A DNA stretch of 64,000 nucleotides from Prorocentrum cordatum (Eukaryota). Positions 20,776 through 59,635 of the stretch are shown here, one piece after another. The stretch covers positions 124,001-188,000 of the forward strand of contig CAUYUJ010000303.1 in the NCBI GenBank assembly GCA_963575745.1, read 5' to 3'. The stretch's first letter is position 1; each line of letters begins with the position of its first letter. The notes beneath the pieces were generated by a model. It saw only the letters and a program-made list of their open reading frames with translations. It had not been told where the DNA came from and did no database searches. The translations under genes were made by a program, and so were the position numbers.

Positions 20776-21209
20776 TTGTTCCACATCCGCGTGCACTTAA
20801 GTGCACCCCGACGCCGCCCTTGCCATGTTGTGTTGTTTGCGTGTGCGTTCGTAGTTTTTTTTTATGTATACGTACATATAGGAAAGAAGAAAAAAAAGGC
20901 GGCGCGCAGGGGGAGGGGGGGGGAATGCCCCCGCTTGGAGCAGTTCGCGCGCTTGCGCCAGGCGTGCCCCGAGCGGTCCTGTCGCCTGTCGGAGCTGCCC
21001 CCCCCCCGCCCGCCCCCCGCGCGCGCGCCACGTGCGTGCCCGCGCGTAGCCTGCGCGCGAGTGCATGTGCATACTTGATTTGACGGACGCGCGCGCAAGT
21101 ACACTTGGGCGACTACGCGTGCGCATACCCGAGTGTGCGTGCACGTGTGCGCATATATGGGCGTGCAGACATGCAAAGGCAATGTGCGTATTGTACGTAC
21201 ACATATAGT

Positions 21210-30143: not shown

Positions 30144-30668
30144 ATTGATCCCCTTCCGAAGAACAATGTATGTCTGATAAGAAAGCAAGATCCCACCTCC
30201 CCTCCCTGGCAGCAGACACAATACTGGCAGTTTTGTGGCGATTATCGTTGCGAAAGACATCCCAACCCTGTGTGTTGAACGTCACAAGCCTCAACTCGGC
30301 GCCCGGCTGTCTCTGATGAGCCGGTCGATGGAGGTGGCGTCTCGGCGCGCCGTTCTCCTCGGCACGCAACGGCATGATGCGAAGAGGTTTGGCCCCTCCC
30401 CGCCCCACGATGGCCTTGCGAGATTCAGGCACCTGGCGAGAGAACAGAACACCATTCTTTCCACGATACCTGGGAGGAGGGGCGCCGGCCCACATCGCCC
30501 CTTCCACCCTCGCAGCTGTGCGCTGCTGTGGCGACCCGTTAGCAGAGGCCATCTTGGCGGGCGGTCGCACGTCACCCATCCTGGCCGCAGTGTCTCTCAG
30601 CAACGACGCCTCAGCGGCGCGCAGCCCCGCGGGGCCCGGCGCAGCCGATGAAGGCGAAGAGGTGGGTC
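30144..30668 (-). mobile_element. 5' portion of LINE family 2 copy A, separated from its body by the 19.7-kb insertion
   Basis: Near-identical to 36147-36670; encodes the start of the APE domain (LRLVTFNTQG...FLSDIH). Confidence 0.93.
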
Positions 30669-30693
30669 AGCTTGCAGTAGCATGTGGTAGCAC

Positions 30694-36606: not shown

Positions 36607-36952
36607 CGACGCCTCAGCGGCGCGCAGCCCCGCGGGGCCCGGCGCAGCCGATGAAGGCGAAGAGGTGGGTCAGCTCGCTGAGAGCTTGCAGTAGCACGTA
36701 AACTTCGAGAACACTTCGGACTCGGCTTCTACTTTTTGGGCCACCTTTTTTTTTTTGTTTCTTCATGGCCTGGAGCATCTGGACGGCCCTGCGGACTCGG
36801 TTGGCGCGGGTCGCCGCCGCGCCCCGCTCACCCGCGCCGGTGGCGAGGACCAGCAGGAGCAGACCGGCGCGCATGGCTGCGGAGACTGCGGCGGCTACAA
36901 TGGGGCACTGCAGCGCGGTGGGATGGCCCGTGGGGGCTTGGCTCGAGATTGC

Positions 36953-36973
36953 CTTGAGCCAAAATGGCTACGG
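36953..36973 (-). other. Dinoflagellate spliced-leader (DinoSL) sequence
   Basis: The minus strand reads CCGTAGCCATTTTGGCTCAAG, an exact match to nt 2-22 of DCCGTAGCCATTTTGGCTCAAG. Confidence 0.95.
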
Positions 36974-37070
36974 GCCGTCTTTGGGCCCGCTTGGGGCCGT
37001 CTTGGAGGCCATCTTGGGCGTCTTGGAGGCCACTTGCGCCGTCTTGGGGTCCGCTTGGGGCCGTCTTGCC
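36974..37070. repeat. 10-11 bp degenerate tandem repeat (GGCCGTCTTGG) immediately upstream of the SL
   Basis: Directly visible. Confidence 0.85.
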
Positions 37071-39620: not shown

Positions 39621-41078
39621 ACGCAGGCGTTCCGGATATGCCACATTTGCACCCCCCTGGAGCACGGGCCCGTTCCGTTTGGCCATGCTCCGCGTTGACT
39701 TGTTTGCCGAGGTTCAACGCAGGTTGGGCGTCATTTGCACCTCCCTGGTCCCCTCTGGAAACGTCCAGAACGCATGGCATTCGAGCCCGACCTGGCCGGT
39801 CACGTGGCGTAGGCGCGCCCCCCCGCGCGCTTGCTTCGGCGTGCCTGGAGCACTTCGCGCGCGTTCGCGCGTCGAATCCCAGCGCCCACATTTTGCTGTG
39901 GATCCCTGAGGACGCAGGGGCGCCGTGGTTCTGGCCCCGCGTGTGCGAACTCGGCCTCCCAGGTCCGATCTGTCCCGGCTTCGCATCGGCCCTGGCGAAC
40001 TCGGGCGAGCCTTGAGCTGTTCCGTCCCTGCCACCTGGCTCCCCAATCGGAGGCAGCGCGCGCACGCTTGAGCACGTCCTTTGCTCGCGTCGTGCCTCTA
40101 CACTCCCGCATCCGCCTAACCGAATACCTTCGAGAATAAACGCTAGGGGAAAATAAAGTTCGGGGTTCAGGGGGAGATAATAAAAGTAGCCCACCAGACC
40201 TCAGCATAATCTCGAAGTAAGAGATGATCCAGAGGAGACCAAGCCGAGCACGTTTTGAGACATCCTTGGCGTTTAGTCTTCATAGAAATATCCTCAACAA
40301 TGGCTTATCTCGCTGGAGACATCCTCGACAAATCCCTTGTTTCGCTTGAGACATCCACGAATTATTGTTTATTTAGCTTGAGACACCGTCAAATTATTGC
40401 TTATTTCGCTTGAGACATCCTCGAACTAATTGTGTTTTCGCTTGACACATCATCAAACTATTGCGGATTTCGCCTGAACATCCTGAAACTATTTCGTATT
40501 TCGCTTGAGACATCCTGAAACTATTGCTTATTTCGCTTGAGACATCCTCAAACTATTGCTTATTTCGCTTGAGGCATCCTCGAAATAATTGTGTTTTTCG
40601 CTTGAAGCATCCTCAAACGATTGCTGCTTTCGCCTGGAACATCCTGAAACTATTGCGTATTTCGCTTGAGACATCCTGAAACTATTGCTTATTTCGCTTG
40701 AGACATCCTCAAACGATTGCTTGAGACATCTTCAAACTATTGCGTATTTCGCTCGAGACACCCTCAAACTATTGCATATTTCGCTCGAGACACCCTCGAA
40801 CTAACTTGCTTAGTTCGCTTGATACATCCTCGAAATAATGGTGTTTCGCGTGAGACATCCTCAAACTGTTGCTTAGTTCGCTGGAGGCATCCTCAAATTA
40901 TTGCTTGAGACATCCTGAAACTTTGCGCATTTCGCTTGAGACATCTTCAAACTATGGCTTATTTCGCTTGAGACACCCTCAAACCATTGTTTATTTCGCT
41001 TGACATCCTCGAACTAATTGTGTTTTTCGCTTGAGACTTCCTCGGAAATATGCTCTTTTCGCTCGATGGTTCTCGCGG

Positions 41079-43601
41079 TTAAAGCTTCATGCACGCGAGC
41101 TCGAAGTCCTTGGCTGCCCTCGACAAAAAGCCTTTGTGGCGCACTTGCTTGAAGTGCTCGCCCATGCCGGCTCGGCAGCCTTTACTGCCATCCTTGAGCT
41201 GCAAGCATTTCTTGCACTCCTTGGCCGCTTGCAGCGCTGCCTCGAGGTTGGCGTGCTTGGGCTCGGGCACGAACGGATCCGGGGCCTTGCCCTTGGCCTT
41301 GGCCTTGCCCTTGGGCTTGGCGTCGCTCGCGTTCTTCAGCTTCTCGATCCACTCGTTACCTCGGGCGCAGATGTCGCTGATGCTGCTTGGCGGCTGGCGG
41401 CCCTCGCCGCGGAGCTCGCGCAGGGCGCGCTCGAACCACCTCGTCACCCACAACCCGCAGGACCACCCATCCACAGGGTATCTCGAGTTGCTCGGAGGGG
41501 GGCACTCCACCTCAGGCCCAAAGAGCTTGCGCAGGATTCTCGCGGCCGCCTCCTTGGCGGACTCGGACGGCACCTTGAGAGAGTCTCGGTACTCGATGGC
41601 CACGTCCTGGAATTCCTCCTTGGTCACCTTGCGGTACGTGTAGTGCATCGGGCTGTCGGGCCGGACGCAGGTGAGCAGAACCTTGGCGTTCTCGATCCTT
41701 TCGCGCCAGGCCTTCTGCTCCTCTTGCGCCTCGGCAGCGGCCGCGTCGTCGCCATGGTCTTCTCGAGCCCAGAGAACAGCAATCGTCGGCTCGATTAGCT
41801 CGACGCCTGGCGGCTGGCCAACTCGTTCCGCGATCTCGCGAATGAGAGCCTTCATCGTGCCGAGCTCGAGGGTCCTGTTCTTCTCGACGAACTCGCAGTT
41901 GGCGATGGCTAGGTGCTTGGCCAGCTCGGTGCGCCTGGCCTTCCTCAGGGTTCGGTAATCCATCTTGGCGGGCTTGGCCTTCGTCCACTCCTCCTCGACC
42001 ACGACCTCCCAGGCTCGAGGGCCGACGGATGGGGGCGAACTCCGCTCGGTTTCCGCTGCCCTCCCGCTCGGCTTCCGCGCGAGTTCCCTTCCGCTCGGTT
42101 TCTGCGCCAACTTCCGCTCGGCTTCCGCTTGCCCTTCTGCTCGGCTTCCGCTCGCGCCCCATTGGCCCTCGAGCCTGGCTGGAGCGGATCTGGAAGATCG
42201 CCGACGTCTCGACCTCGAGCACTCGGAACTGGCACTCGCCCTCGGTGTCCATGACGCCCCAGACGTCCTGGGTTCTCCCGCGCCTCCCCTCGTGGACGCA
42301 CTCCTCGTTGACGCGGATGCTCTCGCCGTGCCAGGGCGAGTCCTTGCACTCCTTGAGGCCCGCTTGGCCTCTCTTCTTGTCCTGGGCGCTCTGGTTCCGC
42401 TTGGCCTTCCCCTTCTGCTTGATGTTCTCTGCGAAGCTCCCCATCGGCTCGGGGGCTCGCCCCGACAGCTTCGCCTTGGCGATGCCTCGGCTCTTGCTGT
42501 CGAGGGCGCATCGGCCATCCTGGTTGCGCTTCGCCTTGTTCCACTTGGCCGCCAGCTTGCCCACGCACTGGCTTCGGAACTTGCTCGCCCACTTGTTCTT
42601 GCGTTTTTTCCCCGACGGTGGCGCACTCGGTCCGTGAGGGCGTGCGGGAACTGGATATCCTTGATGCGCTCCTCGGGCGGCCTGAGCACGTCTCGCTGCC
42701 TGTCTGTGAGCTCGAGGCGCAGCTCTGCAAGCTCGAGGAGGCAGGGGTTCTCGTCGTCCCCGTAGTCCTTCGGCAAGTCCTCGACTCGGAAGCACTCGCC
42801 GCCCAGTGCGCTCCAGTCGGGAATCGGGGGGACGTTCTCGGGCCAGCTCGCAACCGCGTCGAGTCTCTCCTTGGCCAGTCTCGGCTCGATGCCTCGGCCA
42901 GGCTCGGTGGAGTAGCTCCACGGCTCCTCGCTTGTGACGACCTTCAGCTCGGTCTGCTCGGTCGGCCTCGCCGCGGCTCCTCCCTCCTCCTTCTTCTCCT
43001 CCTTATCCTCTGAGACATCTTCGTCTACTTGTTTCGCTTGAGATATCCTCGACGAATCACTCGTTTCGCTTGAGACATCCTCGTCGAACCTCTCGGTTCG
43101 CTTGAGACATCCTCGAGCACTTGCTGTTTCCGCTTGAGACATCATTAAGAAACGTATCGTTTCGCTTGAGAAATCCTTCAGTATATGTTTGTTTCGCTTG
43201 AGACATCCTCGAGTATGTGCTTGTTTCGCTTGAGACATCCTCGGAATAGCTCACCCGCCTCTGTGCCCCTGGATAATCAACCGCTGCGATAATAAAGTTC
43301 AGGCGGGCGGAGGAATGGAGAAAGCGATATACAAAAACAAAATTAAAAAGAAACAATATGAAGCGAAAAAGAAAATGGAGAAAAAAACAACACACACCAA
43401 AAGACAAGAACACAGAGGAGGAGGAAGAGGAAGATAAGGAAAAACCTCAAGTTCAAATGTATTAGATTTTATTTACAAGCGCTTTATGACAATTAAAATG
43501 TTTAAGTGCTCGTGCAGGTAGCTCATGTGCTTCATTTTCCATGGATAACCAACCCCAGGGATAAAACAGTTCAGAGGGGGGGGGGGGGGGGGGGGGGGGG
43601 G

Positions 43602-43689
<88 letters not shown>

Positions 43690-46600
43690 AGCAAGAAAAA
43701 GAAAGGAAGGACTGAGAGAGAGAAGATATATTTAAAAAGAAAAGTGGACTAATAAATAAAAGGGATAAAGAAAAGAGGAAAGGAGGAAAAACATCTGGAC
43801 ATTCAAATGTATTAAATCTTAGTTACAAGCGCTTTATGAAAATTAAAATGCTTCAGTGCTCGCGCAGGGTAGCTCATGCGCCTCACTGTCCGTGGATAAT
43901 CAAGCCCAGGGATAAACAAGTTCAGTTGCACATGGGGAGAGATAGAGAGAGAAAGAGATAGAGAGTCAGACAGAAACACAAACTAAGAGAAACATGTAGA
44001 AATACAAAAGGAAAAGAGAGAAAGAAGACACACATGAAAAATGAACATAAAAGGAAGAAAAACAAATGAAGAGGAGAAGTAGAAGAGGAGAGGAGAACGA
44101 TTGCTTAGTTATTTTGCTGGAGACATCCTCAAATTATTGCTTGGGACATCTTCAAGCTATTGCGTATTTCGCTTGAGAATCCTCGAACTATTGCATATTT
44201 CGCTTGAAACACCCTCAAACTATTGCTTATTTCGCTTGAGACATCCTCGAACTAATTGCGTTTCGCGTGAGACATCCTCAAACTATTGCCTATTTCGCTG
44301 GAGGCATCCTCAAACTATTGCTTGAGACATCCTAAAACTATCGTTATTTCGATTGGAATATCCTCATATTATTGCATATTTCATGTGAGACATCTTCAAA
44401 ATATTATCTATTTCGCTTGAGACATCTCAAATTATTGCTTATTTCGCTTGACACAACATCGAAGACATGCTTGGGCTCATCTTGGGATCCTTCTCGGCAA
44501 TCCTCGAAGGGTTTTCTTGAATTCGCTGGGGGTTGAAGCTCAAGGCTCGAGATATTCCTCTTCCTTGTTCCCCTCTTTCTCCTCCTCCTCCTCGCCGAGC
44601 GACTCCCTCTCCTCATCCTCGTCCTCCTCCTCCTCTTCCTCTTCTCCTCCTCCGTCCCTCCTCCTCCTCCTCCTCCATCTCCTCCTCCTCCTCTTCTCAT
44701 CCTCCCCCTCCTCCTCGTCGTCCGCCCCTCCCGGCCTCGCTGCGAGCATCTGGTTCGCTTGCGTGCCTTGCAGTGGGGCGGTTTCGGCGTTCTTCTCGCG
44801 GAAGCGCTTGCGCGCCTCGGAGATGCAGTAGATGCACTCGCATGACCCCCAATTGCTCGGGCACTTGTAGTTCTTCTCGGGCTCGGCCTTGACCTTCTGC
44901 ATCCAGTCTTGCTCGATCGCCCAGTGGATCTCGGACTTCACCTCGCGAATGGTTGCCTTGAGCTGCGAGTGCTCGTGCGTGTCGGGTTCCTGGAGGAAGC
45001 TCGTCACGTCTGGAGCCATCGGCGCGTAGACGATCTGCTTGAGCCACGCTCGGAGCGCGACGGCCTCGGCCCACTGGCTCGAGAGACAGTCGGCGAACAC
45101 GAGAGCTTGGCCGTGCTCGGCTTGGATAAAGTCGATCGCCCAGATCGCTATGAGCTCGTCGGTCCAAGCTCGAGGCTGGCCCCAGATGTCAATCTGTTCG
45201 AAGATCTCGGCGCGCTGCTCGGGGTCAAACTCGAGGAGGGCTTGGCGCCAACCCTTGAGAATCTGGCCGATGTTCTCGCCTGCTCGGAAGACCTCGGCCT
45301 CGCCGTCGCTTCGCTCGTAGCTGACGTCGCGGAGCCACTTGCCGCTCTCGAGGTCCACATCGGAGATCTTGCAGTGCCTCGCACAGGGCACTGGCAGGAT
45401 CGAGCGTTTCTTGTTCGACTTTGGGCCCTTGGTTGGGTCAAACCAATTCGCGACGCCCGATATGTTGATCATCGTGAGGCGATACTTGTCGCCTGCGCTG
45501 GAGTACGCTTGCTCTACTTGCTCCTTCTGGTCGCCGTGCTCCTCGTAGAACTTGGTTTTCTCCATCCCCCAAGCTGCCTTGTCTGCCCCGGTCTGCGTCT
45601 CGCGGAACTTGCGGCGGAGCTTCTCGATTCGAGCCTTGTGGCTAGGACCCTCGAGCTCGTTCTCGTGGAGGTAGATCTTCTCCTCGCCCCTGAGCTTGAG
45701 CCACGGCGCGGTGGCGTCGACCACGACGACGCTCGTGGCATGCCTGTTCTCGATGAAGCTCTCGGTGCCCCCGACGAACATGGCGAGTTCCTCGGCCGTG
45801 CCCCTGGAAACGAGGTGGATGAAGCGGTCGCTCGTGGCCCACGTCAACTTGGCCTTGGACTCGGAAAGGCCCTTGTTGCGCTGCTCGGAGAGGCGTTGGC
45901 CTTTCCGTCCGACTGCGTGGAGCCTCGGGAGAACGGCCCCCCCGATCCACTTGGAGTCCTTGCGGCAGAGGTTGTTGATATTGAAGGTCTGGAGCCGCTT
46001 GGTGACTCGGGCGAGGATCTGGGAGTTGAAGAAGGCGTGGCTCACGTCCTTGAGGTGCTCTTGTTTGTCTCTCTCCCACTCGAGCTCGTACTTGAGTCTC
46101 GTTAGGATCGTCTTGTGGCGGACCTCGTGGCCGCACATGCGTTCTCGTTTGAACCAGGCCTCGAGTCGGCCCATGACTCCCTCGAGGGGGCGCTTGGGGC
46201 ATGCTCGGCCAGGAGTATAGCTTTGGATCCTCGCGCCTTGGCTCTTGCCTGCCTTGACCCCGTTTGGCCGAACTCGGCCGCAGGCTCGGAGGCCGTTCTT
46301 GCCGAGCCTCTCCGAGGCGACCAGCTTCTCGAAAGCCGCTCTCTTCTCGGCCCAGCTCTTGACCGTGAGGTAGGGCCAGTGCCATTTCTCGATGAGCTGC
46401 GCCTTGACGTTGCTCGGCAGCTGGCCGATGTCCGCGACCTCGCGCTTCTCGGCCTGCTTGCGCCAGCCGAGGGCGACTTGGAGCTTGCACTGTGCTGCTG
46501 GGTCTCGGCGCAGGGTGGGAGCTGCTCGGGGCTTGTGCGCCCCCGTGTACTTGCGATTCGTGCCCTCGGGTCTGCCGCCCTTGGTCGGTCCTCGGGCGAC

Positions 46601-46870
46601 GCCTCGGCCGAAGTCGGCGGGGTCGAGCACCTTGCCCTCGGCGTTCGCCTTCGCTCGGCGCTCAGCTGCGGCTGCGAGGCGTTCCTTCTCGGCCTGATCC
46701 GTCTCGAGCCTCTTGTGCTCGAGATCCTTGAAGAAATTGCTCTTGGCCTCCTCGGACAAGTGAGGCGAGGCTCGAGGCTTCTCGCGGGAGGTCGGAGTGT
46801 CCGCCGGGCTCGGACTTGAAAGGCCCCACAAGCTCGACAAGCTTGACTGCCGCTTGACAGGCGTGCTCAT
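41079..46870 (-). pseudogene. pogo-family (DDE_1) transposase fused to a Ulp1-like (peptidase C48) domain; exons 46870-44736, 42966-42175 and 42005-41079; 1-nt frameshift near 42608
   Basis: CENP-B-like HTH region (LEAWFKRERMCGHEV); DDE_1 motifs VVDATAPW, DKYRLT, WGQPRAWTD, LVFADC and PDVTSFLQEPDTHEHSQLK. The last exon has MHYTY, YRDSL and DGWSCGLW (His-Asp-Cys triad). Two GC-AG introns join the frames. Confidence 0.78.
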
Positions 46871-47049
46871 CGTACGTGAGGCGCGACAGGCTCGAAAGGC
46901 TTGCTGGAGTGGTGGCCTGCTCGAGAGGTTCGAAAGCCTTGCTCGAAAGGCTTGAGCCAAAGAGGCGAATCACGAATGTTGTTCTCGAGTCGATGCTTGT
47001 CGAGTCGATGCTTGGACATCGCTGCTGGATCTGCTTGAAATAAGCATCT

Positions 47050-47289
47050 GGTGCTGTTGCTTGAGATTTCCTCGAGTCAACATTTGGCCTCGCTCGAGAC
47101 GTTCTTGCAGAATTGTTCGCCTCGCCTCAGACATCCTTGAACACATGCTTGATTCGCTTGAGACATCTTCGAAGAAACACTGGGTTCGTTTGAGACATTC
47201 TCGAAGGTCTCATTGTCTGGTTCTGCTCTCTGAGCAGCCATCTGCTTGATCAGCTCTGCTTCAGCAGCTCAGCTTGAGCAGGGAGAGAT

Positions 47290-47376
<87 letters not shown>

Positions 47377-47393
47377 GGAGAGAGGGAGGGAGG

Positions 47394-47486
<93 letters not shown>

Positions 47487-47492
47487 AAAAAG

Positions 47493-47532
<40 letters not shown>

Positions 47533-47775
47533 TCTCAAGGATAATCATTTTGCTTGAGATTTCCTCGAATCAACATTTGGCCTCCCTCGAGACGTTCTTG
47601 CAGACTTTTTCGCATCGCCTCAGACATCCTTGAAAACATGCTTGATTCGCTTGAGACATCTTCGAAGAAACACTGGGTTCGCTTGAGACATTCTCGAAGG
47701 TCTCATTGCATGGTTCTGCTTTCTGAGCAGCCATCTGCCTGAGAAGCTCTGCTTCAGCAGCTCACCTTGAGCAGA
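47050..47775. repeat. ~230-bp direct duplication (47058-47285 and 47551-47775) separated by (GA)n
   Basis: Near-identical sequences, also evident from the paired 62-aa ORFs in the track. Confidence 0.9.
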
Positions 47776-47943
47776 GAGAGATAGTGAGAGAAAGAGGAGA
47801 GAGGGAGAGAGAGAGGGAGAGAGAGAGGGATAGAGAGAGAGAGAGAGGTGAGTCTATCTCTCTCTCTCTCTCTCTCTCTCCCCCGCCGCGCGTCCCTCTG
47901 AGGTTTATTATCGTCGGCAGTTTTACATATATATAACATCGGC

Positions 47944-48731
47944 TGAGGTTTATTATCGTCGGCAGTTTTTTATCATCGGCAGTGGTCAATAGCAACTCCT
48001 GAGCTCTCCCGGAACACGGCGGCACGCAAATGATATGCATTTTTTTGAAAAGCTTCATTTTGAAAATTATTTTCTAAATTGCGAATTCCATTGTAATCCT
48101 TTCAAAATTGCGAAATCGAGCCGTCAGGCGCTTGAATGCCGCATTGCGTTCGAGATGTAAGCGAAAGCGCGTGCGACGCAATTTTCTCATGGCGCGTTTT
48201 TTTTTTTCAAGCAAGCTTTATTTTGACAGAACTATTATATTCGGTTGCGAATTACATCGAAATCCTTTCGAAATTGCGAATTCGAACCCACGCGCGCCTG
48301 AATGCCACACTGCGTTCGCTATTTGGGCAAAAGCGCACGCGACGCATTTATGAGAAAGTTGCGTCGCGCGCGCTTTTGCCCGAATATCGAACGCAGTGTG
48401 GCATTCAGGCGCGCGCGGGTTCGAATTCGCAATTTCGAGAGGATTTCAATGGAATTCGCAACCAAATATCGTATTTTTTTTTTTTTGTCAAAATAAGGTT
48501 TTCACGCTTTCGCCTAAATCTCGAGCGCAGTGCGGCATTCCAGCGCCTGGCGGCTCGATTTCGCAAATTCGAAAAGATTCCAATGAAATTCGCAATTTAA
48601 AAAATATTTTTTCAAAATGAAGCTTTTCAGACAAATGCGTATCATTTGCGCGCCGCCGTGTTCCGGGGGAGCTCGGGAGTTGCTATTGACCACTGCCGAT
48701 GATAAAAAACTGCCGACGATAATAAACCTCA
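47944..48731. repeat. ~790-bp fold-back (near-complete imperfect palindrome), MITE-like
   Basis: Ends TGAGGTTTATTATCGTCGGCAG and CTGCCGACGATAATAAACCTCA; outer arms of about 230 bp, plus an inner palindrome centred near 48352. Confidence 0.9.
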
Positions 48732-48849
48732 AGAGGTTGTGCTGAGGGGTTGCGCTGCAGGGTTGTGCTGCAGGGTTGCGCTGCAGGGTTGTGCTGGAGG
48801 GTTGTGCTGGAGGGTTGTGCTGGAGGGTCGTGCCGGGGGGTTGCGCAGG

Positions 48850-48939
<90 letters not shown>

Positions 48940-49111
48940 AATATATATAAAACGCATTTCGCATATTTTTTTCAAAAAACATCTTATAATAAAGAAGAAG
49001 AATAATAAGAATGATAATAAGAAGAAGAGAAGACATATAGAAAGAAAGAAAGATAGAGGAGGAGGAGGAAAAGCAAGTTTCAAATCCATCAGATTTTTTT
49101 AGAAGCGCTCT

Positions 49112-49172
<61 letters not shown>

Positions 49173-49380
49173 GAGAAGAAGAAGAAGAAGAGGAGATAAT
49201 GAAAAGCAAGGGAGGAAGGAAAGGATGAGAGGAAAGGAGAAGACAGGAGAGGAGCAAGAGGAGAGAGAGATAGAGAAACAGAGATAGGATAAATACAGGA
49301 AAAACAAAAAGAACATGTTTTCCATGGATAATCAACCCCAGTGATAAACAAGTTCAGGGGGGCGCGGGGGGGAGAGAGAG

Positions 49381-49443
<63 letters not shown>

Positions 49444-49727
49444 AAAAAAAAAAAAAAACGAAAATGAAGAGGAGAAGAAACATTCAAGAGGAGAAGTAGA
49501 GGAGGAGAGGAAGAGGAAACACAAGCATTTCAAGTTCCAAATCTATTAGATTTTTTTACAAAGGCTTTATGAAAATTGTTGTCTTAGTGCTCGCGTAGGA
49601 GCTCATGCGCCCCACTCTCCGTGGATAATCAACCCCAGGGATAAACAAGTTCAGGGGCGCATGGGGAGAGAGAAATATAGAAAGCGAGAAATGAAGAAAA
49701 CAAGGAGAGAGTTGAGGGAAATACATA

Positions 49728-49806
<79 letters not shown>

Positions 49807-51100
49807 AAAAGGAAAATACGAAATGGGGAGGAGAAATAGAAGAGGAGAGGAAGAGGAAAAGCAAAACTTTCAAGATTCAACTATATCAGATTTTATGTAT
49901 ACGCGCTTGCGCAGGTAGCTCATGCGGCTCACTTGCCACGGATAATCAACACCAGGGATGAACAAGTTCAGGGGGGCATGGGGAGAGAGAGAGAGAGAGA
50001 GAGAGAGGAACAAAAAAAGAAATACATAAAGACATACATAAATAAATTACAATATAAATTGAGAAAAAAAACAAAAGAAGGAGAAGAGAAGAGGAAGAAA
50101 CAGAGCAACAATTTCAAGTTCCAAATCTATTAGATTTAATTTACAAGCGCTTTCTGAAACTTTTTTTGAGCGCTCGTGCAGGGTAGCTCATGCGCCTCAC
50201 TTTCCATGGATAATCAACCCCAGGGGTAAACAAGTTCAGGCGGAGAGAGGGGGGGGAGATGGACAGAAACATAGAGAGACAAAGAAACAAAGGAAACATA
50301 AATAAGGAAACATGAAAGACATCAGCAACCAAACAATGAAATATGATGTATTTCGATTGAGATATCCTCAAAGTATGGCTTATGTCGTTGGATGCATTCT
50401 TCAAATGATTGCTTGTTTCGCTTGAGACATCCTCGAGGCAGTCTTGAAACACCTCGAGGCACCCTTGAGACATCCTTGACATAATTGCTTGGTTCGCTTG
50501 ACACATCCTTGAACAGTTGTTTATTTGCTAGAGACATCCTTCAGTATATGATTGGTTCGCTTGGCTTGTTTCGCTTGAGACATCCTCGACAAGCTTGTCG
50601 AATCGCTTGAGGCATCCTCGAGTATATGCTTGTTTCGCTTGAGACATCCTCGACAAGCTTTTCGAATCGCTTGAGACATCCTCGCAAAATTGCTGGTTTC
50701 GCTTGAGACATCCTTGAAACATTGCTCGTTTCGTTTGAGTCTGCCTCCCAAAACTCTTGGATTCGCTTGATACATCCTCACAGACTTGCTGTTTTCGCTT
50801 GAGACATCCTTAAGAAACGTATCGTTTCGCTGGAGGCATCCTTCAGTATATGCTTGTTTCGCTTCAGACATCCTCGAGACAGTCTTGAAACACCTTGAGA
50901 CATCCTTGAGACATCCATGAAACAATTGCTTGGTTCGCTTGACACATCCTTGAACAGTTGTTCATTTGCTAGAGACATCCTTGCACAAATGCTTGTTCTC
51001 TTGGGGCTCTCCTGATTTCATCGAGGGTCGAGCCTCGAGGCTGAGGCTCTCGAGATTTTTCCTCTCGCTAAGCATCGCTGGACTGCTGGCCTCGGCTAAC

Positions 51101-51511
51101 CTAGCGAGGCTGGGGCTCGTCGCCCTGGGGCCCCGCGAGCTCGCCCGAGTTGAACCTCTCGGCCCTCCAAGAGGCATGAAGCTCGGCCTCTTGGGCGGGG
51201 TCGAGGCGGGTCTCGAACTCCGTCTCGCTCCAGAAACTCTCGGGCTTGAGCGTCGTCTCCATATTGACCTCCGTCTCGACCTGGACGACTGCGTCGAGCC
51301 TGCCGGCGCTCGCATTCCACTCGATCTGCGCCCTCGACGGCTTCTTCGAGACTGTCGGCTTGGATTCCCTCGAAACTGCCTGCGCTGGCTTCTTGGCGAC
51401 AATAGGCTTGGACCCCCTCGCGGCCTGCGCTGGCTTCTTGGACGCCGTCGCTTGATTGGCTATGCCGTTTCGGGCTTGCTCGTTCTGGGCGCGTTTCTCG
51501 CTCGCACCCAA
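51101..51511 (-). CDS. Small intronless ORF (Lys/Ala/Pro-rich repeats, then a short globular part); start codon unclear, possibly degraded
   Basis: KKPAQA repeats, protein-like composition, and an SL-like motif directly upstream. Confidence 0.4.
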   Translation of the reverse strand: MGASEKRAQNEQARNGIANQATASKKPAQAARGSKPIVAKKPAQAVSRESKPTVSKKPSRAQIEWNASAGRLDAVVQVETEVNMETTLKPESFWSETEFETRLDPAQEAELHASWRAERFNSGELAGPQGDEPQPR

Positions 51512-52138
51512 AAGTCTTCAGCTCGAGTGAGCTACGGAGAAAGACGCCCTCGAAAGCGCGTTCGCCTTGCTTGAGACATCCTCGAAATACCTTAGCTTCG
51601 CTGGTGACATGCTCGAATAAATATTTGCTTCGCTTGGGACATCCTCGGCAGATCTTTTATTTTGCTGGAGACCCCCTCGAATATATGCTTGTTTCCTTGG
51701 AGACCTCGTCCAACAATTGCTTGAGACATCCTTATACTATTGGCTATTTCGCTTGAGACATCCTGAGGCGATTGTTTATTTCGCTTGAAACATTCTCAAG
51801 ACATGTCTTATTTTGCTTTAAGCACCCTTGAAATGATTATTTGGCCCGCTCGAGACACCCCTGCAAACTTATTGGTTTCGCTTGAGGCAACCTCGAATAC
51901 ATGTCTGCTCGCTGGCGACATCATCGGAAAATGTCTTGCTTCGCTCCTGTTCCTCCTCTTGCTCCTCCTCCTCCCCCTCCTCCTCCCCCTCCTCTCCCTC
52001 CTCCTCCTCCTCCTGCTCCTCCTTCTCCTCCTCCTCCTCCTGCTCCTCCTTCGCTAAAGGCCATTAGGTAATCCTTGGCCCCGTCTCGACGCTCTCTTCG
52101 TTGTTTTCTCGAAGCTTTGTGGGCGTCGGTGTCTAACT

Positions 52139-52803
52139 TCAGCGCCCCTCGAGGTCCCGCTGGCTCTGCTTGTGCCCATGCGACGCGAAGGCTAGCGCCT
52201 CGGCGTCTGAGGCGGGCTCGGTCGTCCCAGTGTCGGGGCTGGAAAAAACAACGTAAGCCTCGGATTCCTCTCCGAGGCGCTTGCTCTCCTCGGGCAAGAG
52301 CTCCTGGCGCTTGACTTCCTCGGGCACGAGCTCCTGGCGATTGCTGTCCTCGTCGTCGGGCACCTCGGGCTCTCGAGAGCTCTCCTCGGGCAGTTGCTCC
52401 TGGCGCTTGCTCTCCTCGGGCGCTAGCTCCTGGGGCCTGCTGTCCTCCTCGTCAAGCTCGGCGGTCTCGCCCCCGGCTTCCTTGGGCATCTCGGACTCTC
52501 GAAATTTCGGACTCTCGGCCTCGGCCTCGAGCTCGTCGCCGCTGTGCTCGACCTCGGCCTCGTGCTGCTGCGTGTTCTCGGTCAGGTGCTGCTGCGTGTT
52601 CTCGGGCGGCCGTGGGGGCCCGAGCTCTTGCCGCAGCCCCTCGAACATGTCTTGGGCGCTCTCAAATGGGAGGCTCTCCTCGGGAAAGATTCTCGCCAAT
52701 CTCTCGGGGGAAGAGCAGCGTTCTCGGGGAAGATGTCTCGCCAACGGCTCTCGTGGCGGTCAGCCGTGGATCTCGGCGATCTCGATCGAGACCGTTGGTT
52801 CAT
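52139..52803 (-). pseudogene. Intronless acidic repeat protein (MNQRSRSRSP...; PEESKRQE repeats) with a frameshift near 52708
   Basis: ATG at 52803 lies about 40 nt downstream of an SL-like motif and joins ORF 52139..52744 by a one-base shift in a G/C run. Confidence 0.55.
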
Positions 52804-53152
52804 TGTCGACTTGGAGCAAGTAGTTATCTTGGAGAGCTCGAAATCTTGAGCCGCCAAATGGCTACGGAGCTTGTTGTTCGGTCTCTTGGGGTTCTCTGGT
52901 GTCCTCTTGGGTTTCTCGGGGTTCTCTTGTTGTCCTTTTCCTAAGTTCGCCTTGCGTTTTCTTGGCGTTTGTACCTCCTTGCATCCTCGACAATTGCTTA
53001 AGACGTTCTCAAATAATTGCTCATTTCGCTTGAAACATCCTCGAATGCATGCTTGTTTCGCTGCAATAATTGCTCGCTTCGCTGGAGAATTCCTTGAACA
53101 GTTGCTTATTTCGTTGGAATCTTCCTGGTCCTCCTCTTCCTCCTCCCCCCCC

Positions 53153-53185
<33 letters not shown>

Positions 53186-53367
53186 TCCCCCCCTCGCACT
53201 CCTGTTCTCCCTTTGGGGGGTGGCGGCACTTGAGGAAATTCTTGTCCTCTTGGGGTTTTCCTGGCTTCCCCGAGGCTCTCGAAATGTTTTCCTTGCGAGA
53301 AGCGTCGCTTTACTAAAATTCCTCGAATGAGACGAGCCTCGGCTATCTCGAGAAGGCTTGGGCGATG

Positions 53368-53793
53368 CTAGGGCGGGCCCTCGAGCGCCCGCGTGCGCTG
53401 GAGCCGCTCGGGCAGCAAGTGTAGAGCAGGCGTGTGGACCGACTCGGGGTCGCCGTCCTCGGGCCCCTCGTCCTCGGGCTCGTCGTCCTCGGGTTCCTCG
53501 TCCTCGGGCTGCGGTGCCGACTTGCGGCGCTTGGCTTTCTGGTAGGCTCGCCTCTCCTCTTCGTCACTGCTGCTCGAGATCTCGCGCGGGTGTCTGCCGC
53601 GCTTCTGGCCCTTGTCGTCCTCGAGCGGCTTCTCGCTGCCGCTTCCCTTGGCGTCCTGAAGCGGTTTCTCTTCCTTCTTGAGGTTCTCGCGCTTCAGGTT
53701 CTTAGGCTTCTCGACCTTATCGGGATTCTCGGCATTGGCACCCTGGGGTAGCTTGGCGCGTGCCTCTTGCTCGATGAAGCTCGGCTGAGACAT
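53368..53793 (-). CDS. Intronless small charged protein (about 141 aa), unknown function
   Basis: ATG at 53793, Lys/Glu-rich with the NLS-like stretch KAKRRK, and an SL-like motif about 60 nt upstream. Confidence 0.5.
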   Translation of the reverse strand: MSQPSFIEQEARAKLPQGANAENPDKVEKPKNLKRENLKKEEKPLQDAKGSGSEKPLEDDKGQKRGRHPREISSSSDEEERRAYQKAKRRKSAPQPEDEEPEDDEPEDEGPEDGDPESVHTPALHLLPERLQRTRALEGPP

Positions 53794-55061
53794 CCTCGAG
53801 GTTCTAGCCGGGGCGCCCTGGCGCGTCGGGGTCGGATGCTCGTAACTTGAAAGCTTGAGCAATGAAGCAACTACGGATAGATTTCTCGTTTCGCTTGAAA
53901 CATTCCAGAACAAACGTGTTCCGCTTGAGACATCTTCTGGTGAAGGAAGAAAGAGAGAGAGAGAGAGAGAGAGAGAAACAAAAAAGAGAAAGAGAAAGAG
54001 AAAGAGAAAGAGAAAGAGAAAGAGAAAGAGAGAGAGAGAGAGATAGAGAGAGAGAGAGGGAGAGAGAGAGAGAGAGAGATAATGAAAATCAAGAGAGGAA
54101 GGAGAGGAGGAGAGGAAAGGGGGAGACCGGAGAGGAGCAAGAGGAGAGAGAGAGAGAGAGAGATAGAGAAACAGAAAGCGAAAAAAGACAGAGAGGAAAT
54201 AATATTAATAATATTAAAAACCTATCAGATTTTCCATGGATAATCAATCCCAGGGATAAACAAGTCCAGGGGGGCACTGGGGGAGAGAGACAGAGAGATA
54301 GAAAGAGAGAGAGAGAAGAAACAATGAAAATGAAGAGGAGAAGAACAGTTCAAGAGGAGAAGTAGAAGAGGAGAGGCAGAGGAAAAGCAACAATTTCAAG
54401 TTCCAAATCTATTAGACTTTATTTACAAGCGCTTTATGAAACTTGTTGTTTTAGTGCTCGTGTAGGAGCTCATGTGCCTCACTTCCCGTGGATAATCAAC
54501 CCCGGGGATAAACAAGTTCAGGGGCGCGTGGGGAGAGAGAAAGATATAAAGAGAGAAATAAAGAAAACAGAGAGAGAGAGTTGGGGGAAATACATGCAAG
54601 ACATATTTAAAAAAAAAAAGACAAGAAGAAATGAGGAGGAGAAGTAGAAGAGGAGAGGAAGAGGAAAAGCAACAATTTCAATATTCAAATTTATCAGATT
54701 TTATTTCTAAGCGCTTTATGAAAATTGATTGTTTTAAGTGCTCGTGAAGGGTAGCTCATGTGCCTCACTTGCCACTGATAATCAACACCAGGGATAAACA
54801 AGTTCAGGGGGCATGGGGAGAGAGAGGAAACAAACAAAGAAATAAAGAATATACAAAGAAATAAATATATATATTAAGAGAAAGAATGATAATATAAGAG
54901 GAATAAACAGAGCAACAATTTCAAGTTCCAAATCTACAAGATTTAATGTGCAAGCGCTTTCTGAAAATTGTTGTTTTGAGTGCTCGTGTAGGGTAGCTGA
55001 TGTGCCTCACTTACCATGGATAATCAACCCCAGGGATAAACAAGTTCAGGGGCGCATGGGG

Positions 55062-55101
<40 letters not shown>

Positions 55102-55503
55102 AACAGACAGATATATAAAAAAAGAAAAGGCGAGAGAAACAGAGGACGAGAGAGAGACCGAGAAGGAAGTAGGAGGCAGGAAAGGAAGAGAAGAGCAAGA
55201 GGCCAAGAAGAAGACAAGCTCGTTTCGCCTGAAGCATCCTTGCAATCTTGCAGGGATTCTCTTGGGATCCTTCTCGGAGATCCTCTTGGCGCCCCCTTGC
55301 GCCCCTCGAAGGTCCACCGAGGCCCGAGGCCCTTGCAGTCTCGAGATGTCAGCTCGAGGCCCACTGGAGCTCGAGAGCGTCGAGGTTCGAGGCGCGCCTC
55401 GACGCTCGTCGCTGTGCGGGGGGGAAGGAGGGAGGGAGGGGGGAAGGGAAAAGCACGGCAGCGACGACGGCAGCGACGCCGGCAGAGACGACGACGGCGA
55501 CGG

Positions 55504-55534
<31 letters not shown>

Positions 55535-55734
55535 CACGACGCCGACGACGACGACAGCGACGACGACGACGCCGCCGTCGTCGCTGCCCCCGTCGTCGCT
55601 GCCGTCGCCGCCGCCGCTTCCATCCTCTCTCTCCCCCTCCCCCCCCCTCTCACCTCTCGCCCTCTCCCTCCCTCCCCCCCTCCCTCCTCGCTCGCTCCCC
55701 CCTCCTTCTCTCCTCTCTCTCTCTCTCTCTCTCT

Positions 55735-55783
<49 letters not shown>

Positions 55784-56089
55784 CCCCTCCCCCCTCCAAC
55801 GTCCTCTAGCAATATCTTGTTTCGCTTGAGACATCCTCAAACAAATCTCGCGTTTCGCTTGAGACATCCTCGAAAATTCCTCGCTTTGCTTGAGACATCC
55901 TCCTTGTTTCGCTTGAGACATCCTCAAACAAATCTCGCGTTTCGCTTGAGACATCCTCGAAAATTCCTCGCTTTGCTTCAGACATCCTCCTTGTTTCGCT
56001 TGAGACATCCTCGGCGAATATCTCGTTTCGCTTGCGATATCCTCGAGCAATTGCTTGCGTCGCTCGAGAGTTCCTCTCCCCCCTCCCCC

Positions 56090-56395
56090 CTCCGTCCTCG
56101 ATCGATCCTCGGATCGAGAGTCCAAGATTCTCGAGCCAGGGATCCGAGATCTTGTGATCTCGGATCAACGATGGCTCGAGGCTCTCGGAGCCTCGATCCG
56201 AAGATCTATCGAGGATCGCGCCTCGAAGAGGAGGGAGACATTGAGACAGAGGGTCGATCCTGGATCGATCCTCCGATCGAGAGTCCAGAGTTCTCGGGCC
56301 AGGGATCCGAGATCTTGTGATCTCGGATCAACGATGGCCCGAGGCTCTCGGAGCCTCGATCCGAAGATCGATCGAGGATCGAGCCTCGATGGAGT
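56090..56395. repeat. GATC/TCGA-saturated ~165-bp tandem duplication
   Basis: Copies start near 56112 and 56276. Confidence 0.85.
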
Positions 56396-56563
56396 CACGC
56401 TCGATTTTACTCTTGAGAGGGGGCTGACGAAGCCTCTCGGAGAACGCCTCTCGAAAAACTCGAGGGAGCTGGGCGCTCATCGCCGCTCGCTCCTTGCAAA
56501 ACTGATCTCGAGGAAGCTGGGCCTTGCTCGCCCATCACTCCTCGACCAGGCCTCTCGTGAGCC

Positions 56564-57556
56564 TCAGGCCTCTCGATCGGGCTTCTCGGGCTCGCGCTTC
56601 TCCTTGGCTTCCTTGCGAATCTCGAAATTATTGGTGAATTTCCTCGAGTAGAACTCCTGGGCGAACGTGGTCTCCTTCTTGTACTTCTCCTTGGCCGCTT
56701 CATCTATGTCGAGCTTGGCGCGCTTGGCCTTGTACGCGTGCTCGTCGACCACGTACTTGCTCGAAGCAGTCTCGGCGATCTGCTCGACCCACCTGACGAC
56801 CGCGTCGGTCATAGTGACTCGATTGTCCTTGGCATCCTTGTCCCACCCGAAGGTGAAGTACTCCTCGGCCTTCTCGGGCAAAATGAGAAGCGGCTTGTAC
56901 TCCTCGGCGCCCTCGCTGCTCGGCAGCACCGGGCGGAACTGCTTGTCGAGCGGGGGAATCCTCTCGAAAAGCGCTTGGAGGTCCTGGGGGATCTCGCCGA
57001 TGGCCTTCTCGAAATTCTTGGTTGTCTCCTCGTCCATGGCTCTCGCCTCGTCCAGGAGCTCCTTGCGGAAGCTTGGACAGTACTTCCACAACTCGTCGCA
57101 GCTTGTGTCTTGGGGGTCGAAGGGGTTGCAATGCGCCTCGCTGCCCTCGATGAGGGTCTTGAAGAAGACGACCGTCAGCATCTCGGCCATTCTCGTGTCC
57201 TTGGCGTGGAAGAGACCCTTGTAGGTCGCCCTCTCGAGGCCGCCTTTCTTGAGAACCGCCTCGAGCATGTGCAGCTTGCTGTTCTTGCCCCAAACGGCGC
57301 TCTCGCCACGCTGGTACGCGCTCGTCATTCTCGCCGCGTCCGTGGCCTCGCCGCTCGAGTGGCACTGGCGCATTTCTGCGCAGCCAGCTTTGTCCGCCAA
57401 CCACTCGAGGGTCTCGTTGTTCTTCTTGCTCTCCTTCAAGAGCTCGGCCAAGAGCTCGTTGGTCTTCTTGGTCTCCTCGATCAACATCTTGAAGCTCGTG
57501 GCGGTGGGAACCTCGGCCTCGGCGGAGGAAGCGGCGGCGCCCTTGATCAGAGTCAT
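56564..57556 (-). CDS. Intronless ~330-aa protein of unknown function (N-terminal coiled-coil-like segment, globular core)
   Basis: Long open frame with strong GC3 codon bias, ATG at 57556, and an SL-like motif about 80 nt upstream. Confidence 0.75.
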   Translation of the reverse strand: MTLIKGAAASSAEAEVPTATSFKMLIEETKKTNELLAELLKESKKNNETLEWLADKAGCAEMRQCHSSGEATDAARMTSAYQRGESAVWGKNSKLHMLEAVLKKGGLERATYKGLFHAKDTRMAEMLTVVFFKTLIEGSEAHCNPFDPQDTSCDELWKYCPSFRKELLDEARAMDEETTKNFEKAIGEIPQDLQALFERIPPLDKQFRPVLPSSEGAEEYKPLLILPEKAEEYFTFGWDKDAKDNRVTMTDAVVRWVEQIAETASSKYVVDEHAYKAKRAKLDIDEAAKEKYKKETTFAQEFYSRKFTNNFEIRKEAKEKREPEKPDREA

Positions 57557-58852
57557 GGGCTCGAAGGCTCGCACGGGCAGGCTGAGGCTCGAGGCTCGAA
57601 GGCTTGGAGCCTGCAGCTCGAAAGGCTCGAATAGCTCGAGCCACAACGGTTGCGGTGCCATCGTCGTCGTCGTCGTCGTTTGCGTGCGGTCGTGCCGCCA
57701 TGTTAATTGGTCTGCGCCACCTCGGCATCGCTCCCAAAATTCTTGGTTTCGCTTGAGACATCCTCACAGAATTGCTGTTTTCGCTTGAGACATCCTTAAG
57801 AAACGTATCGTTTCGCTTGGGTCATCCTTCAGTATATGCTTATTTCGCTTGAGACATCCTCGAGTATATGCTTGTTTCGCTTGAGACATTCTCGACAAGC
57901 TTCTCGAATCGCTTGAGACATCTTCGAGTATAGCTAGTTTCGCTTGAGACCCTCTCGACAAGCTTGTCGAATTGCTTGAGACATCCTCACGGAATTGCTG
58001 GTTTCGCTTGAAACATCATTGAAACATTGCTCGTTTCGTTTGAGTCTGCCTCCCAAAATTCTTGGTTTCGCTTGAGACATCCTCACATAATTGCTGTTTT
58101 CGCTTGAGACATCCTTAAGAAACGTATCGTTTCGCTTGAGACACCCTTCAGTATATGCTTGTTTCGCTTGAGACATCCTCGAGTATATGCTTGTTTCGCT
58201 TGAGACATCCTCGACAAGCTTCTCGAATCGCTTGAGACTTCCTCACAGAATTGCTGGTTTCGCTTGAGACATCCTTGAAACATTGTTCGTTTCGTTTGAG
58301 CCTGCCTCCCAAAATTCTTGGTTTCGCTTGAGACATCCTCACAGAATTGCTGTTTTCGCTTGAGACATCCTTAAGAAACGTATCGTTTCGCTTGAGACAT
58401 CCTTCAGTATATGCTTGTTTCGCTTGAGACATCCTCGAGTATATGCTTGTTTCGCTTGAGACATCCTCGGCAAGCTTCTCGAATCGCTCGAGACATCCTC
58501 GAGTATATGCTTGTTTCGCTTGAGACATCCTCGACGAGCTTCTCGAATCGCTTGAGACGTCCTCACAGAATTACTGGTTTCGCTTGAGACATCCTTGAAA
58601 CATTGCTCGTTTCGTTTGAGCCTGCCTCCCAAAATTCTTGGTTTCGCGTCAGACATCCTGAAAAAGTGTGATCTCTTCGCTTGATGTTGCTATTTCAACA
58701 TAACTTGATCTTGCTATCTCAACATAACGTTCCGAGGTGATAATGAAGTTCGGCTTCAACGCTCGCCGCCCAATTTGAATTTTATATAGGGAGACGATAA
58801 TAAACTCTAATGACTTAAGGGGGGGGGAACTTGATTATCATCGGCATGCGGC

Positions 58853-59635
58853 TACCGACCTCCAGCGTCCGTCAGCTCAGCATTCCGTCCGCCGGTTTTC
58901 AGCATCCCACTCTCCATTTCCACCACCTACCGACCTCCAGCGCCCACCAGCTCAGCATTTCGACCTCCGGCTGTTAGCATCCGGCTCTCCGTTTCCACCT
59001 CCACTTACCGACCTCCAGCTTCCATGATCGCAGCATTCCGACCTCAAGCTTTTAGCATCCGTCTCTCCACATCCAGTTCCACCTATCGACCTCCAGAGCC
59101 CACCAGCTCATCATTCCGACGCTAACCTCTAGCGTCCACCTCTCCACTTCCAGCTCCACCTATCGACCTCCAGCGTCCACCAGCTCAGCACTCCGACTTC
59201 AATCTCCAGCATCCGACTCTACACCTCCGCATTCACCTACTGACTTCCAGCGCCCATCAGCTCAACAGTACGACCTTCCACCTCTTAGCGTACACCTCTC
59301 CACTTCCAGCTCCACCTATCGACCTCCAATATTCACCAGCTCAGCACTCCGACCACCAACCTCGCGCATCCGAATTTCCACTCCCACCTTCATCAATCGA
59401 CCTCCAGCGTCCATCAACCCAACACTACGACCTCCATTCTCTAGCATGCAACTCTCCACTGCCAACTCTGTCTATCGACTTCGGCGTCCATCAACTCAGA
59501 ATTTTAACCTCCAACCTCCAGCATCCGACTCTCGACTTCCACCACCAATCAACCGCCAACGTCCACCAGCACAACATTCAGACCTCCAACCTCTCACATT
59601 TGACTTCCCACTTCCACCCCCAATCGACCTCTAGC
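58853..59635. repeat. ~77-bp C-rich degenerate tandem repeat, about 10 copies
   Basis: TAYCGACCTCCAGC recurs near 58853, 58928, 59006, 59084, 59161, 59238, 59317, 59396, 59473 and 59622. Confidence 0.9.

Follow-up and report, generated by a model that had tools for sequence, protein, structure and literature searches.

Probable relict spliced leaders upstream of five co-oriented units embedded in a 32-bp satellite of Prorocentrum cordatum

A 64-kb stretch of the Prorocentrum cordatum genome (contig CAUYUJ010000303.1 of assembly GCA_963575745.1, positions 124,001 to 188,000 of the forward strand; here called the window, with coordinates counted from its first letter) carries on its minus strand a transposase-like gene, gene T, and four co-oriented open reading frames (ORFs), ORF1 to ORF4, each of the five units being preceded by a short motif that resembles the dinoflagellate spliced leader (SL, or DinoSL). 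How did sequences resembling an RNA leader come to stand in genomic DNA before each unit of a row, and what part does gene T have in this arrangement? A preliminary description of the locus regarded the five units as a pogo-associated domain and offered two explanations, either a DNA transposon that serially acquires reverse-transcribed, trans-spliced mRNAs as cassettes, or one that uses a genomic SL mimic as leader or promoter of each gene. The analysis reported here indicates that the five motifs are probably relict DinoSLs standing before processed, retroposed gene copies that lie in a 32-bp satellite.

All five motifs were found with the letters and at the positions described before, on the minus strand, which is the coding strand of the units, and each of them lies where a repeat array meets an ORF. 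The clearest relict SL of the region is the ORF2 motif (TCCGTAGCCATTTGGCGGCTCAAG, 52845-52868), located 41 nt before the ATG at 52803 and at an edit distance of 3 from the SL, one T having been lost and GGC duplicated. The ORF3 motif (TCCGTAGTTGCTTCATTGCTCAAG, 53854-53877), 60 nt before the ATG at 53793, has both ends intact (TCCGTAG and GCTCAAG) with 10 nt in place of the middle, and the ORF1 motif (TCCGTAGCTCACTCGAGCTGAAG, 51516-51538) keeps 13 of 14 end positions with 9 nt in place of the middle. The ORF4 motif (ACCGCAACCGTTGTGGCTCGAG, 57635-57656) matches the SL at 17 of 22 positions, with scattered substitutions, 78 nt before the ATG at 57556. The gene T motif (GCCTCTTTGGCTCAAG, 46951-46966) is a 5'-truncated relict of 16 positions, 14 of which match the 3' part of the SL, and it stands 80 nt before the ATG at 46870. 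In all five units the 500 bp that precede the ORF contain DinoSL-derived sequence on the coding strand, the motifs at 46951 and 57635 being weak when taken singly.

The G+C content of the window is 58%. It contains one canonical SL (CCGTAGCCATTTTGGCTCAAG), at 36953-36974 on the minus strand, which is the sole match in the window with three or fewer mismatches; none of 100 shuffles of the window yielded any match at this threshold. This copy agrees with the SL at 21 of 21 positions, with C as its first base, and lies 78 nt upstream of an ATG at 36874, so that SL-tagging is general within the window. It is followed (36750-36974, minus strand) by a short signal-peptide-like ORF and then by an A run (AAACAAAAAAAAAAA, near 36750-36765) that immediately precedes a 550-bp repeat similar to a long terminal repeat (LTR), and from its letters the whole segment looks like a short processed copy reaching from SL to poly(A).

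The five motifs could be thought to be chance or compositional matches. The satellite makes CTCAAG abundant on the strand concerned (102 occurrences on the minus strand with about 16 expected, compared with 16 on the plus strand), and the window also has an excess of CTCGAG (89 per strand, about 16 expected). Moreover, TTGGCTCAAG with at most one mismatch is not enriched (9 observed, 5.6 expected), and sites at an edit distance of 6 from the SL are frequent (24 in the window, 10 on the plus and 14 on the minus strand, the 53854 motif being absent from them). Nevertheless, this explanation is extremely improbable and is already contradicted for the motifs at 51516, 52845 and 53854. When a split-SL pattern was defined as CCGTAG, a gap of 8-10 nt and GCTCAAG with at most one mismatch, 4 of the 15 CCGTAG hexamers of the window (10 on the plus and 5 on the minus strand) completed it, all four on the minus strand: the canonical SL and these three motifs, which bears out the earlier remark that three copies keep the ends of the SL while the middle has drifted. 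The expectation for the whole window is 0.28 sites, with a maximum of 2 in 100 order-1 simulations. On the minus strand of the region 40200-58700, the composition-matched expectation, from models trained on that strand and region, is 0.017 against the 3 sites seen, with a maximum of 1 in 300 order-3 simulations; an over-fitted order-5 model gave 0.19 expected sites and a maximum of 3 for the same region.

A generic semiglobal SL score, calculated for 1066 bins of 120 nt on both strands of the window, argues in the same direction. Counting, for each motif, the bins with an equal or higher score gave 1 for the canonical SL, 2 for ORF2, 3 for ORF4, 6 for ORF1, 8 for gene T and 21 for ORF3. All five bins preceding the units are thus among the top 21 and four of them among the top 8, and by this score SL-like hits of equal quality are not as common away from the ORF starts. 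The generic alignment score is 34 for the 52845 motif and 24 for the 57635 motif, and no SL-like hit scoring 18 or more was found at the junction between the array and the 3' part of gene T or at the array-to-spacer junctions, neither of which stands before a gene start. Only three sites of the window lie within an edit distance of 5 from the SL, those at 36953 (0), 52845 (3) and 57635 (5), and for the last one (at most 5 mismatches in 21) the window-wide expectation is 0.19. Placement also speaks against coincidence, all five motifs being located at an array-to-ORF boundary and on the coding strand. Taken jointly, the five motifs exceed chance. In two relics CTCAAG is altered towards CTCGAG, or CTCGAG is present internally.

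Relics of the SL also precede relatives of gene T. Eight metagenome loci encode such relatives, on contigs that measure 3.9 kb at most and include no neighbouring genes. In one of them (L007, 37% identity), TCCGTAGCAATTTTGGCTCAAG, with a single mismatch to the SL, ends 17 nt before the ATG of an ORF that stays open to the contig end; this locus has a second SL relic on the opposite strand, pointing away, and its upstream neighbour is divergent. Another locus (L003) shows TTTTGGCTCAAG, which corresponds over 12 nt to the 3' part of the SL and precedes an in-frame ATG by 33 nt, and no SL relic was present in the 5' flank of a third one (L002). A relic is therefore found at three of the four loci of the gene T family that have a 5' flank, L002 being the exception. 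Because L007 and L003 carry relics before the ATG, the truncated motif at 46951 is best read as a decayed relic. The transposase-like family of gene T appears, from these sequences, to spread as leader-tagged mRNA copies and not by its own transposition.

The initial bases after several relics read NNTTCGAGC (cctTTCGAGC, aTTTCGAGC, ctaTTCGAGC and ccgTTCGAGC), in the 5' untranslated regions (UTRs) at 46940-46950, 52836-52844 and 57625-57634 and at positions 1057-1066 of L007. TTCGAGC is found 12 times on the minus and twice on the plus strand, and its position after the relics may represent an acceptor-site context or mere composition. Just downstream of each of the five motifs a second, truncated relic was sought, with tail fractions of 0.115, 0.055, 0.082, 0.833 and 0.028, values that are suggestive at most of such second relics.

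Retrogenes carrying relict DinoSLs are reportedly known from dinoflagellates through the work of Slamovits and Keeling in 2008. The window resembles them in having SL-derived sequence on the coding strand some tens of nucleotides before the ATG, in its continuous, co-oriented ORFs, in relics that range from near-perfect to 5'-truncated, and in weak indications that a further truncated relic follows shortly downstream; it differs in having five such units in a row, interleaved with one 32-bp satellite and lacking A-rich tail remnants. Song et al. (2017, PMC5585692) report a relict DinoSL within 500 bp upstream of more than 20% of the genes in two Symbiodinium genomes, with relics best preserved at -50 to -100, and four of the motifs described here, 41-80 nt before their ATG, fall in or beside that zone. 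According to Stephens et al. (2020, PMC7245778), relic DinoSLs arise when transcripts re-integrate. That relict SLs mark retroposed mRNAs, as the preliminary description had taken to be established, remains the best reading in view of the motif enrichment and of the relics before gene T relatives.

Under retroposition, each unit would go back to a mature mRNA, SL-capped and without introns, whose reverse transcript was reinserted, the 22-nt leader thereby becoming genomic DNA immediately upstream of the 5' UTR. The genomic leaders would then have decayed to a varying degree. The units, all in one orientation, would have been inserted into a pre-existing and locally abundant 32-bp satellite that fills the spacers, and their present-day expression would presumably depend on fresh trans-splicing at or downstream of the relic. 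The transposase-like gene T would be one more such unit, damaged, and not the organiser of the others.

Several observations weigh against this interpretation. By edit distance (6), the motifs at 51516 and 46951 are no better than 20 others among the 24 sites of that class, and those at 46951 and 57635 are weak individually. ORF1 and ORF3 lack homologues and are perhaps not genes. No poly(A) remnant was found in the units, the 3' ends in three of the five being purine-rich (GGA)n or G-rich tracts, and no target-site duplications were recognised around them. Five adjacent, co-oriented retrogenes in one satellite also exceed the order that random reinsertion predicts. Finally, the pattern of kept ends and changed middle in three relics departs from uniform decay, and this loss of the middle is the reverse of the TTT(T/G) retention reported by Song et al. 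(2017, PMC5585692).

An alternative idea is that relics are retained by function, as a core promoter or as trans-splice acceptors, since CCGTAG and CTCAAG both end in AG. This idea concerns what the motifs do at present and is compatible with a retroposed origin. Selection on both ends of the relic would account for their survival alongside the loss of the Sm-like middle, and three of the five relics (51516, 52845 and 53854) indeed keep 13-14 of the 14 end positions, with 9-10 unrelated nt in place of the middle 8 nt. The relics stand 41-80 nt before the ATGs, in or beside the zone of the promoter use proposed by Song et al. (2017, PMC5585692), where the AG within the relic is also noted as a potential acceptor for a new SL. 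The SL mimic acting as promoter, the second explanation in the preliminary description, is in fact the hypothesis published there. However, the same authors argue for the retained TTT(T/G) middle as the promoter, and the TTTT/TTGG middle is precisely the portion lost from the three relics of the window. The other two relics decay otherwise, by 5' truncation and by scattered substitutions. Only three cases are concerned, the T-run and the AGCC/GGCT palindrome may be indel hot spots, and the loss of one T with a duplication of GGC suffices to explain the 52845 copy. Retention by function is accordingly regarded as rather doubtful.

The cassette hypothesis depends on the nature of gene T. Its 5' part (44732-46870, minus strand) resembles DDE transposases and integrases, and its 776-aa ORF (44540-46870) has eight unnamed relatives with 35-66% identity. 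Since the long relatives extend into the product of 41079-42971, this downstream stretch is the 3' part of the same gene, and it contains two frameshifts with respect to homologues, one near 42600 and the other between 42214 and 42008. Sequence comparison does not place it in pogo, with no Pfam or Protein Data Bank (PDB) sequence match: Pfam gave nothing at E<=0.01 for the window protein and no relevant family at E<=1 for nine members of the family (no DDE_1 or DDE_3, HTH_Tnp_Tc5 or CENP-B_N), and a search of PDB sequences with the family profile found no match. A resemblance of the C-terminal VDGWSCGLW to Ulp1/C48 was rejected, Pfam having given no such match.

A structural model of the gene T core (predicted local distance difference test value, pLDDT, 72.7) gave nothing at E<=1e-3 with Foldseek. 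An exhaustive structural comparison with VIA-align placed retroviral-type integrases and DDE transposases in all of the top 28 rows (Z 9.3-6.6), with integrase cores at 9.3-8.1, Mos1 at 8.1 (167 residues aligned), Metnase at 8.0 (171) and Sleeping Beauty at 7.8 (182), values only slightly higher than the stated background of Z 7-8. The N-terminal part matched the DNA-binding domain of CENP-B, a DNA binder derived from pogo, with Z 6.0. The conserved motifs VVVDATA, ADCLSSQW and LQEPD, with a spacing of D...D-34-E or D-36-D, would provide the predicted catalytic triad. The predicted model thus shows an RNase-H-like DDE/D fold together with an N-terminal helix-turn-helix, and the protein is plausibly a DDE-transposase-like one of the Tc1/mariner/pogo kind. 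Its predicted core is RNase-H-like, as in the Tc1/mariner/pogo (ITm) transposases and the retroviral-type integrases, and its N-terminal part is CENP-B-like. In contrast with Tc1/mariner/pogo elements, gene T has no Pfam match, no terminal inverted repeats and a C-terminal extension of about 600 aa, and its copies bear SL relics and have apparently spread as mRNA copies. The pogo label is at most partly right, being favoured by the predicted DDE fold and the CENP-B-like N-terminal part and failing on sequence matches and on terminal inverted repeats.

No pair of terminal inverted repeats brackets either gene T (41079-46966) or the five-gene domain (41079-57656). The only long inverted repeat in the inverted-repeat scan was a 788-bp foldback (47944-48731), the others being microsatellites. 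The arms of this foldback are 87-95% complementary, its ends read GAGGTTTATTATCGTCGGCAG, and a similar word is found near 58790-58840.

Gene-capturing DNA transposons such as Pack-MULEs and Helitrons carry a transposase-like gene beside unrelated host-like ORFs, an arrangement also seen in the window. A pogo-like transposon with the four ORFs as cargo, their mRNA copies having been acquired singly between 32-bp arrays, would fit the predicted DDE fold of gene T and its nearness to four co-oriented, SL-tagged ORFs. It would also find some support in a gene model from another dinoflagellate genome (P0012), where an ORF4-like 3' half (35% identity, E=1e-18) is joined to an ORF2-like part, so that the two neighbour or fuse elsewhere too; a merged gene model is likelier for P0012, because the full-length relatives of ORF4 end where ORF4 ends. 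Nonetheless, unlike Pack-MULEs and Helitrons, the ORFs of the window lack enclosing termini and each has its own mRNA-derived leader, gene T and its relatives in other organisms are themselves tagged with SL relics, and gene T is split by a 1,769-nt block besides its two frameshifts. Between gene T and ORF1 lie about 4.2 kb of unrelated repeats and the foldback, and at L007 the upstream neighbour is divergent instead of being a co-oriented cassette. The 32-bp arrays, taken in the preliminary description for borders of cassettes, are also present within gene T, past its 3' end and before ORF4, and this distribution makes them a spacer satellite and not cassette borders. Serial acquisition of cassettes by a transposon is, on these grounds, very improbable at this locus. 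Among the titles and opening lines of abstracts covered in the literature, no transposon collecting SL-tagged cassettes is described.

The 32-bp arrays have a single orientation and a common core (GGATGTCTCAAGCGAAAC), and they flank every unit. The repeat shares CTCAAG with the SL, a derivation from which would be conjectural. They are located on the minus strand upstream of ORF4 (57746-58659, with a 256-bp higher-order repeat), downstream of ORF4 (55816-56046), between ORF2 and ORF1 (51569-51950), downstream of ORF1 (50421-51003) and downstream of gene T (40290-41063), arrays also being present beyond the five-gene domain. Shorter runs were recognised by eye at 53878-53938, 52982-53120, 47055-47212 and 47580-47700. 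A purine-only tract of (GGA)n closes the ORF2 unit on its 3' side (51944-52050, minus strand), and similar purine tracts are found in the ORF3 unit (53138-53203) and the ORF4 unit (about 56073-56100). In the ORF3 unit, the array stands at a phase of about 10/32 just before the relic and resumes at 14/32 after the purine tract, which is nearly continuous, and the ORF1 unit, by eye, interrupts one repeat core. Both observations fit the insertion of units into a pre-existing array. The automated phase test was usable for ORF3 alone, the local alignments running too far at ORF4 and ORF1 and being weak at ORF2 and gene T, and the array junctions other than those of ORF3 and ORF1 are too degenerate for a phase reading. 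A 78/156-bp tandem repeat with about 9.6 copies (58852-59594) is located immediately upstream of a 32-bp array.

Spacer units of about 150 nt, beginning with CCCCTGAACTTGTTTATCCCTGGGGTTGATTATCC, are present at 43271-43925, 49326-50230 and 54260-55049 on the minus strand, and gave no Rfam match, so that they belong to no known RNA family. Their motif architecture occurs also beside gene T relatives from other organisms (positions 24-52 of the metagenome locus L005, and about 335-370 and 745-780 of L007). The half-sites co-vary, being TTTATCC/TTATCC in the window, TTTATACC/TTTATACC in L005 and TTTTATTC/TTTATTCC in L007, and the motif may be a conserved protein-binding or element-end motif.

The 1,769-nt block that splits gene T (42967-44735, minus strand) is composed of two 32-bp arrays, a (GGA)n tract, three spacer units of about 150 nt and a CT microsatellite. 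A 9-bp direct repeat (GCGAGGCCG, at 44740-44732 and 42971-42963) marks both of its borders, and removal of 1,769 nt in a GC...AG register restores the reading frame as AARP|TEQTELKVV, as in homologues. The direct repeat would supply the predicted splice sites, as is typical of introners. Introner-like insertions are said to have been described in dinoflagellate genes by Farhat et al. in 2021. The block in gene T is likewise edged by a direct repeat with a candidate splice register that restores the frame, but it is built from satellite arrays, microsatellites and spacer units and is not a compact inverted-repeat element. The block may represent either an intron of the introner-like type or an insertion that disables the gene.

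The four ORFs are co-oriented and continuous, with 32-bp arrays between them, as described before, apart from a 1-nt frameshift in ORF2. ORF4 (56564-57556, minus strand) encodes a 330-aa protein that belongs, over its full length, to a large, unnamed, all-helical family, with 97 representatives at E<=1e-3 and 46 at E<=1e-10, mostly of 315-390 aa and aligned end to end. No Pfam family reaches significance for it, and its predicted all-helical fold had no Foldseek match at E<=1e-3 and no informative fold match. The 3' UTR of ORF4 includes a 163-bp tandem duplication (1.8 copies, 93% alike, 56095-56389). ORF3 (53368-53793, minus strand; 141 aa) is a low-complexity orphan, the homologue search giving only two weak hits that cover 31% of the query, and its ATG lies inside a 12-mer identical to the core of the 32-bp repeat (GAGGATGTCTCA, 53786-53797). 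ORF1 (51101-51511, minus strand) is an orphan open frame of 136 codons; it is open from 51511, with its first in-frame ATG about 250 nt downstream and none near the motif, and its best score in the protein atlas was 0.84, under the lead threshold.

ORF2 (52139-52803, minus strand) encodes an acidic protein. A relative with 86% identity (P0011) places the start of the protein at the ATG at 52803, and relative to it the copy of the window has the 1-nt frameshift near 52690. Contigs from DNA sequencing runs are short and 85-99% alike, and the runs include copies of all units that are 90-97% alike. In a single contig of one run (X1), position 52866 is followed by 13 other letters and then by a 32-bp array, which is a hint that the similarity of another ORF2 copy to the window locus stops right where the SL relic begins. 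Another run (X5) gave next to no cover of the ORF1, ORF2 and ORF4 bins, gene T being covered, a result that has no bearing on linkage.

Elsewhere in the window, a reverse-transcriptase element that matches Pfam RVT_1 and has ORFs of 1385 and 1962 aa is present in two copies (4981-10441 and 30669-36148) that are 97% alike, the second one flanked by LTR-like direct repeats of 550 bp (30144-30693 and 36147-36697, 96.7% alike). A 10-bp satellite (GTTTTCATGT, about 123 copies) extends over 19575-20780. The window is treated as dinoflagellate nuclear DNA; among named relatives, the closest one to an ORF of the window is a gene model under the label Prorocentrum cordatum / Polarella glacialis. Neither the Rfam scan nor the tRNA scan of the whole window gave a match.

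A bolder proposal is that the 32-bp satellite, instead of being passive filler, would act as a preferred, orientation-specific landing site or safe harbour for reverse-transcribed copies of SL-capped mRNAs. Such 'retrogene nests' would be expressed by read-through and renewed trans-splicing, the AG-ending ends of the relics being selected as acceptor or promoter and the Sm-like middle purged; we consider this a long shot. Relict SLs are a standard marker of retroposition in dinoflagellates, and the window mainly confirms this known pattern. The decay in which the ends are kept and the middle is lost counters the published idea of a promoter motif, and an unannotated family of DDE-transposase-like genes is seemingly multiplying as mRNA copies, neither of which is established by one locus. 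Five leader-tagged units in a row within one satellite may, likewise beyond what one locus establishes, bear on where retrocopies land and survive in a dinoflagellate genome.

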